From Candidatus Moraniibacteriota bacterium (GTDB lineage: Bacteria > Patescibacteriota > Minisyncoccia > Moranbacterales > UBA9337), in NCBI GenBank assembly GCA_036584565.1, contig JAZHDF010000076.1, positions 1 to 47,876 on the forward strand: a stretch of 47,876 nt of DNA, read 5' to 3'. This document shows positions 31,612-34,517 of the stretch, piece after piece; position 1 is the first letter of the stretch; each line of letters starts with the position of its first letter. Below the pieces are notes generated by a model. The model was not told where the DNA came from. It saw only the letters and a program-made list of their open reading frames with translations, and ran no database searches. The translations under genes were made by a program, and so were the position numbers.

Positions 31612-32283
31612 TTATTTCAAAAATCCCCTATTATCGTATATTTGAGGCTGTTTATAATTCTCATATCTCGAATAATCCGCTCTTATTTTCCTTTCCGGCT
31701 CGCATTTTTGATACATTTGCCATGCAATCGCTAGGGCCATCACAAGATCATCATGCGCTTTTTTTTCGGCTTGTGCTTTCCAACTGCTTGAGGTTTTAAC
31801 CACGACAAAAGACAACATTTCATTTATTGTTTGCTTATCATAAATTTTAAATAATTGCTTTTCCACTGCATCCTTTAACGCCGAGATCATTACCGGCCTT
31901 GTCGCGCTGTTGGTGTTCCATCCTAACAAATTCGGTTCGTTATTATCCACATTGCCAAACTTCGGCATTTCAAAAACAATATATTTTCCATTGAGATTGA
32001 GTCCGGCCACCCTATCCATCAAAAAGGCTCCGCCATTATTCCTTTCCAGTGCGATCACCGGCTTTGTTTTGGTCATATCAAATACCGCCTCCAATACCCT
32101 CACCAATTCCGGGATAAAATCGGATGTTGTAATACCGCTTTGATACACAAGCGGACAATCTATCTTATTTTTGGATAATACTTGTATGGTGGTATTGTCT
32201 CCGCCTCCGCTTGCCGTGTCTCCGGCAAAGAGTAAAAACTCACCCTGTTCAATTGTTCGATATTGTCGCCACATAATGATCAT
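31612..32283 (-). CDS. terL: Terminase large subunit, nuclease (RNaseH-like) domain only
   Basis: 223 aa. FAGDTASGGGDNTTIQV, IALERNNGG, GWNTNSATRP and AHDDLVMALAIAW match the Terminase_6 C-terminal domain. Confidence 0.8.
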   Translation of the reverse strand: MIIMWRQYRTIEQGEFLLFAGDTASGGGDNTTIQVLSKNKIDCPLVYQSGITTSDFIPELVRVLEAVFDMTKTKPVIALERNNGGAFLMDRVAGLNLNGKYIVFEMPKFGNVDNNEPNLLGWNTNSATRPVMISALKDAVEKQLFKIYDKQTINEMLSFVVVKTSSSWKAQAEKKAHDDLVMALAIAWQMYQKCEPERKIRADYSRYENYKQPQIYDNRGFLK

Positions 32284-32309
32284 TTTTTAATAATTTATCC
32301 AATTTTCTA

Positions 32310-32726
32310 TTAAATATTTATTTTATTAGTTTTAACTGCAAAAAGCCAACATTCTATCTCTTCCTTTGTTAATATTTTTTTAGGGTTTGTTATTCTTTCT
32401 TCATCCAGCCATCGCTTTATCATTCCTATTTTTTTATATAAATCTTCTTTCATTTCTTGTCTCGCTTGCTCTTTGATACATTCATTTTCAATAGTTCCTT
32501 CTGCGAAAAAACTACAACCTTCTTGATAACTTTTCTCTTTTTCTTTTTCTATTATTTGGCGGATAGTAACTTTTATCCAATCCCTATTTACATATTGGTC
32601 TGAAAAGTGTGGTGGCATATTATTTTTGCAATTGCACGCAGGATATTCTTTATCAAATTCTTCCTCCCAATCTTCTTTTTCTAAGTTTTCATCATTTGTC
32701 AAATCTTCAATCATTGATTTTTTCAT
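32310..32726 (-). CDS. Hypothetical protein (island ORF, paralogous segment with the 94-aa ORF)
   Basis: 138 aa. It shares IEKEKEK and ARQEMKEDL segments with ORF 32723-33007, plus a 20-nt identical stretch. Confidence 0.45.
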   Translation of the reverse strand: MKKSMIEDLTNDENLEKEDWEEEFDKEYPACNCKNNMPPHFSDQYVNRDWIKVTIRQIIEKEKEKSYQEGCSFFAEGTIENECIKEQARQEMKEDLYKKIGMIKRWLDEERITNPKKILTKEEIECWLFAVKTNKINI

Positions 32727-33007
32727 AAACCTTTTTCTTTAATTATTTTAATAACAATATCTTTTAAAAATTCCATAACTCCATTATCGTCTATGGCTCT
32801 TATATTTTTAATATCTGCAATCAACTCCTCTTTTAATTCTTGGCGAGCTTTCTCTTTTTCTTTTTCTATGGTTTCAACTAATTTATCGGAAATTTTAATA
32901 GCTCTTTCACTAACAAATACACCCTTGGGAGTTTCAGTCCAACACATTGAGGCTTCTCCGATTGCTTCGTTGACTATTGTTTTATAATTTTCTTTGATGT
33001 TTTTCAT
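32723..33007 (-). CDS. Hypothetical protein (island ORF)
   Basis: 94 aa. 4-nt overlap with the next ORF. Confidence 0.45.
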   Translation of the reverse strand: MKNIKENYKTIVNEAIGEASMCWTETPKGVFVSERAIKISDKLVETIEKEKEKARQELKEELIADIKNIRAIDDNGVMEFLKDIVIKIIKEKGL

Positions 33008-33023
33008 ATTTTTTCAATTTCTA

Positions 33024-33545
33024 TTATTTTAAATTTATATTATTTTTTACTTCGTTTCCCCAGACATCCCAACCCTCTGTTTTTTCTCTTGCAAACATTT
33101 CCAGTTTTGTACATTTAGGAAATTGTCGGCTTATCAATTTCCTAAAATAAGATGGTTTTTTTGAGTGTTTAGATTTTTTTTCCCGATAAACGGAACTTTC
33201 TCTTAATGGTGGTATTGGCGGAGAAAATTTGCCCCTAACACCAACTAATAAAATCTCATGTTGTCCTCTAAACCAATAGCCCATACCAACCCAAGTTTTA
33301 TCCCATACCGCTTGAGTCTTATACTTAAAGCCCCACGCTTTCATAACCTCTAGCGCCTCCAGTAATTTTGGTGCAGTGGCCCAAAGATATAAAACCGAAT
33401 TATCATCCACCGGAACTTTAATATTGCATATATCTGCATTTGTCATTGTTGGATAGTGATTTTCTATTTTATCCGCGTTATCCTTACAAAAATCATATCT
33501 CCAAGGTGGGTCTGCATATATTATTTGATATTTTTTTAGGTTCAT
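33024..33545 (-). CDS. MT-A70-family N6-adenine DNA methyltransferase
   Basis: 173 aa. IIYADPPWRY (DPPW catalytic motif), YLWATAP and AWGFKYKTQAVWDK. Confidence 0.85.
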   Translation of the reverse strand: MNLKKYQIIYADPPWRYDFCKDNADKIENHYPTMTNADICNIKVPVDDNSVLYLWATAPKLLEALEVMKAWGFKYKTQAVWDKTWVGMGYWFRGQHEILLVGVRGKFSPPIPPLRESSVYREKKSKHSKKPSYFRKLISRQFPKCTKLEMFAREKTEGWDVWGNEVKNNINLK

Positions 33546-33546
33546 T

Positions 33547-33681
33547 TTATTTATTATCTTTATTATTTTTTATCCCTGTTTTTTTCTTCGTATCGATTAA
33601 AGCGTAAATATAAATATTATAAGGTTTTTTTGTTTTGTTATTATATCCTTTGGCATAAAGGATTTTTACTTTTATTTTCAT
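33547..33681 (-). CDS. Possible 44-aa basic mini-ORF
   Basis: Its ATG overlaps the TerL-ATPase TGA (ATGA). Its stop is 1 nt before the methylase ATG. It is below the track cutoff. Confidence 0.3.
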   Translation of the reverse strand: MKIKVKILYAKGYNNKTKKPYNIYIYALIDTKKKTGIKNNKDNK

Positions 33682-34517
33682 AAAAATTGAAATTTAATTG
33701 GTTCTTTAGTCGTTTTTAAAACCTCCCTCAAAACATTTACATCAAAATAACACTCACCGGAAGTTAAAAAGGCATCCTCCTCCGTCATCGGGTATTCTTG
33801 ATTAAACAATCTTTCCCCAAGCTCAAGTTTTTTCTGCTCCAAAAATTCCGGGCTATATTCCCACTCCGGGCTATAAAATAGCGGTTTATAATTGTTTTTG
33901 CCTATCTTTGCATTATCCCAAAAACCCTTAAAGTCATTGTATCCGTTGGCCGTTGTCTCCAATATTTTATGCGATCCGTTTATACAAGCCTCACCAACTC
34001 CGGACATAAGATCATCCATACTGGGACAAAATGAAACCTCCGTAAGATGTAAAAACGATATATCATCACCACGGCCGAAACTCCCGGATTTGGCCGTTCC
34101 TATTCTCAATGTATTTATACACTCAATCTCTCCGGCTTCGTTTTTTTTCTCATAAACCAATTCAGACTTTGAATTATATTTAAAAGGGATTTTTTGATTA
34201 TCATTGTTTCGCTCAAAAGATCGGATAAAGTGCTTCGCTCTTTCAAGTTGTTTCGCCGCCGCCGTGGCATCAAAGGACATAGAAACACACCTCTCATTTT
34301 CTCCAAAAATAAGTTTTAAAACGGCGATTGCCAAGGCCACGGAAGAAAAACCCATTTTCCGCGCTTTCAATACCACCAACAAAAGATTATCCTGCATCTC
34401 GTTTATAAAATGATCTTGCGCCCGGTTTAAAATAAACGGCACCTCCATTTTATCCTTATTGATGATCGTCAATTCGTTTTCGATTGCATCTTTGTAGCCT
34501 TTAGCGTTAAATTCCAT
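33678..34517 (-). CDS. terL: Terminase large subunit, ATPase domain only
   Basis: 279 aa. VLKARKMGFSS (Walker A-like), FLHLTEVSF (Walker B/catalytic Glu), LETTANGYNDF and NQEYPMTEEDAF match the Terminase_6 N-terminal domain. It overlaps terS by 11 nt. Confidence 0.85.
   Translation of the reverse strand: MEFNAKGYKDAIENELTIINKDKMEVPFILNRAQDHFINEMQDNLLLVVLKARKMGFSSVALAIAVLKLIFGENERCVSMSFDATAAAKQLERAKHFIRSFERNNDNQKIPFKYNSKSELVYEKKNEAGEIECINTLRIGTAKSGSFGRGDDISFLHLTEVSFCPSMDDLMSGVGEACINGSHKILETTANGYNDFKGFWDNAKIGKNNYKPLFYSPEWEYSPEFLEQKKLELGERLFNQEYPMTEEDAFLTSGECYFDVNVLREVLKTTKEPIKFQFL

Follow-up and report, generated by a model that had tools for sequence, protein, structure and literature searches.

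The large terminase (TerL) encoded in the 47,876-nucleotide stretch of DNA analysed here, contig JAZHDF010000076.1 of a Candidatus Moraniibacteriota bacterium assembly (GCA_036584565.1; hereafter the window), is probably translated from two genes into two chains, TerL-N with the ATPase and TerL-C with the nuclease, which derive from an inherited fission of the gene and whose reading frames are now kept apart by an island that recently entered an insertion hotspot. A first-pass annotation of the window had reported the two open reading frames (ORFs), the motifs in each and a densely coding gap of 1394 nt between them, and all of these stand as reported, on the minus strand. About 97% of the gap is coding; its four ORFs and the two terL halves are all co-oriented, and the junctions, from the ATPase half to the nuclease half, are an ATGA overlap, spacers of 1 and then 16 nt, an overlap of 4 nt and a final spacer of 26 nt (Table 1). 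Canonical TerLs (T4 gp17 and those of HK97, D6E, Sf6 and P74-26) have the same folds and chemistry, namely an additional-strand catalytic-glutamate (ASCE) ATPase and an RNase-H nuclease with a D/E/D triad, and occupy the same genomic place between the genes at the small-terminase (TerS) and portal positions; however, they are one chain, whereas the window has two genes for two polypeptides.

The two ORFs are TerL halves, and the profile searches bear out their earlier assignment from motifs: PHROG TerL families match the ATPase half and the nuclease half at 7e-12 and 7e-14, respectively. Pfam matches stayed below the curated thresholds (13.6 bits for Terminase_6C, which has a cut-off of 22.6, and nothing for Terminase_6N at E<=0.1), so the identification is drawn from PHROG matches, homologues and structure. 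With both halves, tblastn finds annotated TerLs of cultured phages at 26-28% identity. The strongest link is P0050, a fused relative of 489 aa that is 61% identical to the ATPase half and 47% identical to the nuclease half of the window; its AlphaFold model (predicted local distance difference test score, pLDDT, 85) matches T4 gp17 (3CPE) with a Foldseek E of 2.7e-21, and the nuclease part of the model has a template modelling (TM) score of 0.78 to the RB49 gp17 nuclease. The ATPase half contains the elements that define ASCE ATPases, that is, a deviant Walker A motif (K51-A-R53-K-M-G56-F-S58-S59), a Walker B and catalytic Glu pair, T159-E160, which aligns with D255-E256 of T4 gp17 and has Thr in place of the Walker B Asp, and the coupling C motif E187-T-T189; it also holds the segment equivalent to the hinge, followed by a helix at its C-terminal end and by ...KEPIKFQFL as its tail. 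In the nuclease half, the acidic triad of the RNase-H fold is present as D22, E80 and D178/D179, equivalent to D401, E458 and D542 of T4 gp17, and the half has its own ATG, with M4 aligned to the family start M-F/W-R-x-Y-R. Pfam or PHROG scans of 29 ORFs of the window, which comprised all those of at least 200 aa except one of 2117 aa, together with the small ORFs around the terL halves, revealed no second terminase.

In place of one polypeptide with a hinge, the window has two ORFs 1394 nt apart, and most of its relatives are likewise split. A search of a collection of 5.8 billion proteins returned 529 and 995 homologues for the two halves, of which 120 were listed per half; nearly all of those listed are half-length (~270-300 aa for the ATPase, ~210-230 aa for the nuclease), down to ~50% identity. 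The longer homologues of the ATPase half include P0050, P0092, P0041 and P0085, and two fused proteins of 488-489 aa are among the matches listed. For the genomic comparison, 250 related loci were fetched by a profile search, which was used instead of a single-protein locus search that gave only four loci, and both halves were placed with hidden Markov models (HMMs) on stop-to-stop ORFs; a large mixed alignment (A3) in which nuclease halves were misaligned was dropped in favour of another (A4). Near-complete halves are present in 103 non-identical related loci, 80 of them with a split and 23 with a fused terL. Uninterrupted relatives, which the first-pass annotation had suggested seeking, are thus at hand, and the ends of the fused and split forms align. 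Distant TerLs, including the outgroups, are all single ORFs, and the nearest annotated phages have a fused gene. Wherever both halves were detected (212 of 212 loci), they are adjacent and co-oriented.

The junction could be extracted in 78 split loci, in which the two halves overlap (41), are separated by a spacer of 1-70 nt (9) or lie more than 70 nt apart (28); 25 of the last 28 have at least 140 nt with ORFs. The range extends from a 56-nt overlap to whole inserted genes, the gap in the window being the largest. All three relative frames occur (17/40/21), and the ATPase halves end in TAG (30), TGA (26) or TAA (22). In the sister locus L005/L171, a 53-kb contig (JBAZXY010000001.1) from a Parcubacteria metagenome-assembled genome (MAG), the same two genes are 11 nt apart with TAATAAAAACAAAGATG (TAA TAA) between them. 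The ATPase half of L005 ends in ...KEPIINQFS and its nuclease half starts with MFRQYR; the corresponding ends in the window are ...KEPIKFQFL and MIIMWRQYR; in the fused proteins, this region has the sequence ...KEAKTIDGFRRYR. Most frequent among the junctions is an overlap of 8 nt, ATGTTTAG, in which nAT GTT TAG of the ATPase frame lies over ATG TTT AGA (M-F-R) of the nuclease frame. Fused clade 1 reads AAT GGC TTY AGA (N-G-F-R; L017/L021), and with TTT at the F codon one 2-nt indel converts ATGTTTAG into the fused AAT GGC TTT AGA or back, whereby the stop and the start are made or lost together. In many loci, the conserved K-E-P codons provide a Shine-Dalgarno-like AAGGAG, whose AGGAG precedes the nuclease ATG by 6-8 nt, the spacing of an initiation site. 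Programmed +1/-1 frameshifting at this overlap was considered and rejected: the AAGGAG is spaced for initiation and not in the prfB-like manner, the junctions fall in all three frames and may contain spacers or whole genes, and in the window such frameshifting is impossible.

The history of the split was reconstructed by Fitch parsimony on neighbour-joining trees of the ATPase, nuclease and concatenated alignments, rooted with fused outgroups and with 60 bootstraps each. The ingroup is overwhelmingly split on these trees, with about four fused sub-clades nested inside it, and the most recent common ancestor of the split taxa is reconstructed as split in 58-60 of the 60 bootstraps. The bootstrap medians are 4-5 changes from split to fused and about two from fused to split (1-3 on the full data). 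An internal ...K-D-M-F-x-Q-Y-R is kept in fused clades 3 and 4; its Met aligns with the nuclease start codon of the split relatives and looks like the footprint of a re-fusion. On this reconstruction, the fission would be old and inherited, with later re-fusions, and split genes prevail in what is a diverse clade of temperate phages.

The phylogenies of the two halves are discordant, which indicates recombination between them. The ATPase half of the window is nearest to L005 (74.6% identity vs 67.4% to L091; 99.9% of bootstraps), whereas its nuclease half is nearest to L091 (75.4% vs 64.0% to L005; 100% of bootstraps); L064 and L188 are further loci concerned, the latter being 38% identical to the window in the ATPase half and 54% in the nuclease half. 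Across loci, the pairwise identities of ATPase and nuclease halves correlate with r = 0.56. A separate case is L110 (IMGVR_UViG_3300015608_002163), with a fused terL at ~1896-3400, in which the ATPase part belongs to the ingroup (57% identical to the window) and the nuclease part is foreign (28% identity, HMM score 72 vs ~300); it is an apparent domain swap.

The junction between the halves is a hotspot, a site permissive for insertion and recombination. By Pfam, it contains SAM methyltransferases in L069 and L080, a HAD-like hydrolase in L054 and L122, YopX in L048 and free-standing HNH_3 endonuclease genes in L056, L080 and L174 only (E ~1e-10; three separate lineages); the insert of L090 has a marginal Cpn10-like match just below the cut-off. 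Many inserts are unmatched, and an all-against-all comparison left 55 singletons. In L251, both halves and the flanks are 80-84% identical to the window at the nucleotide level. Its island of 1.24 kb and four genes, within which lies a gene for an Acb2/Tad1 hairpin domain (2345-2590; PF24729, an anti-CBASS/anti-Thoeris sponge family), has no detectable similarity to that of the window. Because flanks of such similarity enclose unrelated islands, the island of the window is recent and variable. The first-pass annotation had offered, as one explanation, that the island inserted into the linker and thereby split terL; this is not supported, since relatives such as L005 are split at the same gene ends without any island. 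Since such relatives have these ends overlapping or a few nucleotides apart, the two genes had been separate before the island arrived; it recently filled a site that existed between them and was not the cause of the split.

Both halves bear the marks of function. Across the 103 loci, conservation reaches at least 97% in split and fused members alike at 34 positions of the ATPase half and 22 of the nuclease half, which include K51/R53/G56/S58, E160, E187, T189 and D22/E80/D178-179; in an alignment of 29 sequences (A2), T159 is invariant and T188 nearly so. The ratio of nonsynonymous to synonymous substitution rates (dN/dS, Nei-Gojobori) between split relatives is 0.02-0.13 in both halves, and between the window and L251 it is 0.051 for the ATPase half and 0.058 for the nuclease half. 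By this measure, each half is under strong purifying selection, which, together with the conserved catalytic residues, is an indirect indication that the pieces reassemble into an active enzyme. The earlier suggestion of a genuinely two-subunit TerL thereby gains strong comparative support, through a split that appears ancient and clade-wide and through purifying selection on both of its products. As for expression, most genes of the window have an A-rich leader without a Shine-Dalgarno sequence, and the nuclease ATG at 32283 is preceded by one of the same kind (attattaaaaaATG); no minus-strand terminator-like hairpin was found between the terL halves. Given this genome-typical leader and no terminator between the halves, the simplest view of the nuclease half is that it belongs to the same operon as a cistron with translation initiation of its own.

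Models of the T4 motor depend on a covalent hinge, gp17 aa 354-364, for the relay of signals from one domain to the other (PMC3074133). This hinge aligns with residues 243-253 of P0050 (AFIASGNLYFD), where the confidence of the model is locally lowest. The break lies ~20 residues further downstream, at the turn D271-G272 between strands 268-270 and 273-275 (pLDDT ~94-96), just before the first RNase-H strand with its catalytic Asp. It had been placed earlier exactly in the interdomain linker, which holds insofar as the break lies in the region connecting the two domains; however, in the model it is located in the turn of a beta-hairpin and not in the flexible hinge. The ATPase polypeptide thus retains the hinge equivalent, the helix 254-262 and one strand of the hairpin, while the nuclease polypeptide starts with the partner strand, and the pairing of these strands may help to dock the two subunits.

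In the mechanism that we propose, the fission of the gene would be old, the commonest junction differing from the fused reading by a single 2-nt indel that creates (or removes) the ATPase stop and the nuclease start together; once the halves were separate genes, the space between them would have become a permissive site for insertion and recombination; the 1.39-kb, four-gene island of the window, with its MT-A70 gene, would be a recent filling and the largest one seen. The two polypeptides would then assemble non-covalently into a working packaging motor, for which a plausible route is that the ATPase subunit keeps its hinge, helix and strand, and that the nuclease subunit docks by pairing its own first strand with this one. 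The data suggest that a covalent link between ATPase and nuclease is dispensable. More tentatively, and as something we regard as possible without expecting it, this may be a clade of temperate phages, probably infecting Patescibacteria of the Candidate Phyla Radiation (CPR), with a heteromeric TerL held together non-covalently by beta-strand complementation and with the junction acting both as a recombination boundary and as a site of cargo capture. Several points weigh against the proposal of an inherited two-chain TerL. Assembly and activity in trans are deduced from conservation only, and the idea of strand pairing from one AlphaFold model of a fused homologue. The trees are of the neighbour-joining type only and the halves recombine, so several independent fissions could have occurred instead. 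Relatives with overlapping junctions may make a minor frameshifted fusion product, and the domains of T4 gp17 are not known to reconstitute packaging when they are expressed separately, which makes activity in trans non-trivial.

Among the alternatives, the one that survives best, although it is unlikely, is that the two products form no stable complex and that a phi29-like ATPase motor devoid of a nuclease operates next to a free nuclease recruited by TerS, the portal or DNA. The discordant phylogenies, with their apparent independent exchange of halves, would be easier to understand with a loose interface, and the phi29 gp16 motor works with only a vestigial nuclease domain (PMC7672431). However, the halves stay adjacent and co-oriented in every locus in which both were found, their stop and start codons often overlap in a manner that couples translation and favours 1:1 co-assembly, and the break falls in a confident hairpin and not in a floppy linker. 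The ends of the two polypeptides also co-vary in the 78 split loci: F-Q-F/L tails of the ATPase half occur with W-R/K-Q-Y/F-R heads of the nuclease half in 8/8 loci, compared with 4/70 for other tails (Fisher p 2e-8, uncorrected for phylogeny and partly forced by gene overlap). The eight loci with F-Q-F/L tails all have non-overlapping junctions, and seven of them carry inserted genes. This co-variation may reflect physical contact or a co-transferred junction cassette; it is not taken as proof of contact, since GTT is the only last tail codon that the ATGTTTAG overlap allows.

It is highly improbable that a single TerL is restored by a self-splicing intron, trans-spliced RNA, a split intein or ribosome bypass. 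A search of positions 31000-35200 against Rfam gave no matches at E<=1, in keeping with the earlier remark that the coding density leaves no room for intron structure and in contrast to terL genes that are interrupted by introns. Each half of the window has its own stop and start, and these coincide in protein position with those of relatives in which the genes overlap or are 2-11 nt apart, where no intron fits. The summed length of the halves (279 + 223 = 502 aa) is about that of the fused proteins (488-489 aa), which excludes an intein, and Pfam finds no intein domain; moreover, a gap of 1.4 kb far exceeds any known ribosomal bypassing.

Just as improbable is that cargo entered an intact terL recently and left a broken or barely tolerated gene in a defective prophage or pseudogene. 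The integrase in the window would allow for a decaying prophage, and the G+C content of the island (0.28-0.38) is below that of the terL halves (~0.40), but other regions of small ORFs in the window are equally AT-rich. The split is older than the island, as the halves are already separate genes in the sister locus and in dozens of relatives that have no insert, and no close relative with a fused terL was found among the listed matches at 88-92% identity, which are half-length throughout. The low dN/dS against L251 and the intact catalytic residues are likewise at odds with decay.

Least credible of all is an artefact, either an assembly chimera or ORFs mis-called under an alternative genetic code with UGA as a sense codon; the sequence is metagenomic, the ATPase half ends in TGA and some CPR phages use code 25 (bioRxiv 10.1101/2024.03.08.584096), but a 980-bp Logan contig from a separate assembly (SRR27793275), 100% identical to positions 33942-32963 of the window, spans the ATPase-half stop, orf44 and the methylase, and L251, L252 and L253 share the architecture with different islands. 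Stop-codon recoding (code 25 or code 4) was rejected, since the TGA is followed by AAA TAA and read-through would add two codons only, the family uses all three stops, and the 2117-aa ORF is open under code 11.

Interrupted terminase genes are known from other viruses. In Jug-phage and crAss-like phages, terL is interrupted by group I introns or inteins and is spliced to give one TerL (PMC12880540). As in the window, two or more ORFs result, sometimes with genes between them; however, those pieces are spliced, whereas the window is without a ribozyme or an intein and each of its pieces has its own stop and start. The herpesvirus gene UL15 consists of two exons that flank other genes. The closest parallel in concept is the NrdA protein of Aeromonas phage Aeh1, an essential single-chain enzyme encoded in two genes, the products of which, like those of the window, would reassemble non-covalently. 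There, the homing endonuclease gene mobE splits NrdA into NrdA-a and NrdA-b (Friedrich 2007, cited in PMC5418858), and the pieces reassemble through short insertion-derived tails that are essential for assembly (Crona 2011, PMC3045599). Of the traits of such 'genes in pieces', the window has two ORFs with a start and a stop of their own, but neither Pfam nor PHROG detects a homing endonuclease in its island, HNH_3 genes being confined to L056, L080 and L174. Additionally, Aeh1 is a single phage, whereas the fission of TerL is clade-wide, ancient on our reconstruction and mostly without an endonuclease, with new tails of 3-8 residues.

The genes for RNA polymerase (RNAP) subunits RNAP1 and RNAP2 of N4-like phages are separated by zero to eight spacer genes, including HNH endonucleases (PMC5418858). 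They resemble the family of the window in that parts of one enzyme lie in two genes with variable small genes or endonucleases between them; however, the enzyme is a different one and is not described as the fission of a protein that is a single chain in near relatives. In phi29 gp16, with its vestigial nuclease, motor and cutting became uncoupled in evolution (PMC7672431). That phage lost nuclease activity because it packages unit-length, protein-primed DNA, whereas the window keeps a separate nuclease gene that is predicted to be catalytically intact. In the literature searched, the coverage of which was incomplete, no report of an unspliced two-gene TerL was found, only intron and intein cases and P2-type 'ATPase subunit' names. 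The TerL case differs from the known ones in being clade-wide and mostly endonuclease-free and in concerning the packaging motor.

Packaging models differ in what the nuclease domain and the hinge contribute to translocation, and a natural two-chain TerL is a test case for them. Should the halves prove to function in trans, packaging would need no covalent coupling, and the interface that takes its place could be mapped; the tether would then be dispensable both for translocation and for headful or cos cutting. Motor and nuclease modules would be exchangeable independently, with methylases, Acb2/Tad1-like genes and HNH endonucleases as cargo, and the inter-half junction would be a predictable place for accessory and anti-defence genes in these phages. 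A split TerL might also alter detection by TerL-sensing (Avs-type) defences, which is pure speculation. In practical terms, half-length terL ORFs are missed or mis-scored by annotation pipelines, Pfam thresholds and terL-based phylogenies.

Table 1. Features of the window that are discussed in the text, with positions counted from its first letter
Feature	Position	Strand	Basis or remark
162-aa ORF at the small-terminase position	34507..34995	-	11-nt overlap with ATPase-half start
TerL-N, large-terminase ATPase subunit, 279 aa	33678..34517	-	PHROG, homologues, motifs, fold of relative
ATGA overlap of the ATPase-half TGA stop and the orf44 ATG	33678..33681	-	
orf44, Lys-rich, 44 aa, first island gene	33547..33681	-	
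MT-A70 family N6-adenine DNA methyltransferase, 173 aa, island cargo	33024..33545	-	Pfam PF05063 E 6e-23; phrog_359 4e-56
orf94, island gene, no assigned function	32723..33007	-	sub-threshold Pfam/PHROG matches only
orf138, island gene, no assigned function	32310..32726	-	
TerL-C, large-terminase RNase-H-fold nuclease subunit, 223 aa	31612..32283	-	PHROG, homologues, motifs, fold of relative
577-aa ORF at the portal position, downstream of terminase genes	28721..30454	-	same gene order in L005
Tyrosine integrase	10960-11841	-	Pfam Phage_integrase 8e-26; phrog_1 2e-34

The gene order of the window, with a TerS-position gene, terL and a portal-position gene, is the usual one. Neither the 162-aa ORF nor the 577-aa ORF has a Pfam or PHROG match; the former is a putative TerS from its position, and the latter a putative portal from its position and size. 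Within the island, an ORF related to orf44 occurs at the same position in L252, the methylase is 48% identical to that of Polaribacter phage Danklef_1, and orf138 has no match in Pfam, PHROG or 256 fetched loci. The window is a temperate phage or prophage, as indicated by its tyrosine integrase; further genes encode an exonuclease (3003-4265) and a replication-initiator-like protein (38191-39000). Three small Cys/His-rich ORFs of 78, 68 and 56 aa (35224-35843, minus strand), located immediately upstream of the packaging genes, have GGAGG/GGGG-type Shine-Dalgarno sequences and a G+C content of ~0.41-0.43, unlike most genes of the window with their A-rich leaders. A reading by eye of the first of these (orf78, 35224-35460) as an HNH protein received no support from Pfam and was dropped.

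Five proteins of 528-1121 aa (P0253, P0254, P0256, P0266 and P0337) match only the C-terminal part of the ATPase half, in two stretches near their own C-termini, and may be ATPase halves with large insertions or N-terminal fusions. Other close relatives of the window come from MAGs of Moraniibacteriota, Paceibacterota and Saccharibacteria, in which the binning of phage contigs is unreliable. In L005/L171, the cellular genes CysS, CorA and YidD (1-2551) flank the phage region on one side; the relatives are suggested to be prophages of Patescibacteria/CPR hosts. L005 also has an Acb2/Tad1 hairpin domain gene (8510-8749), which is located upstream of its terminase genes.

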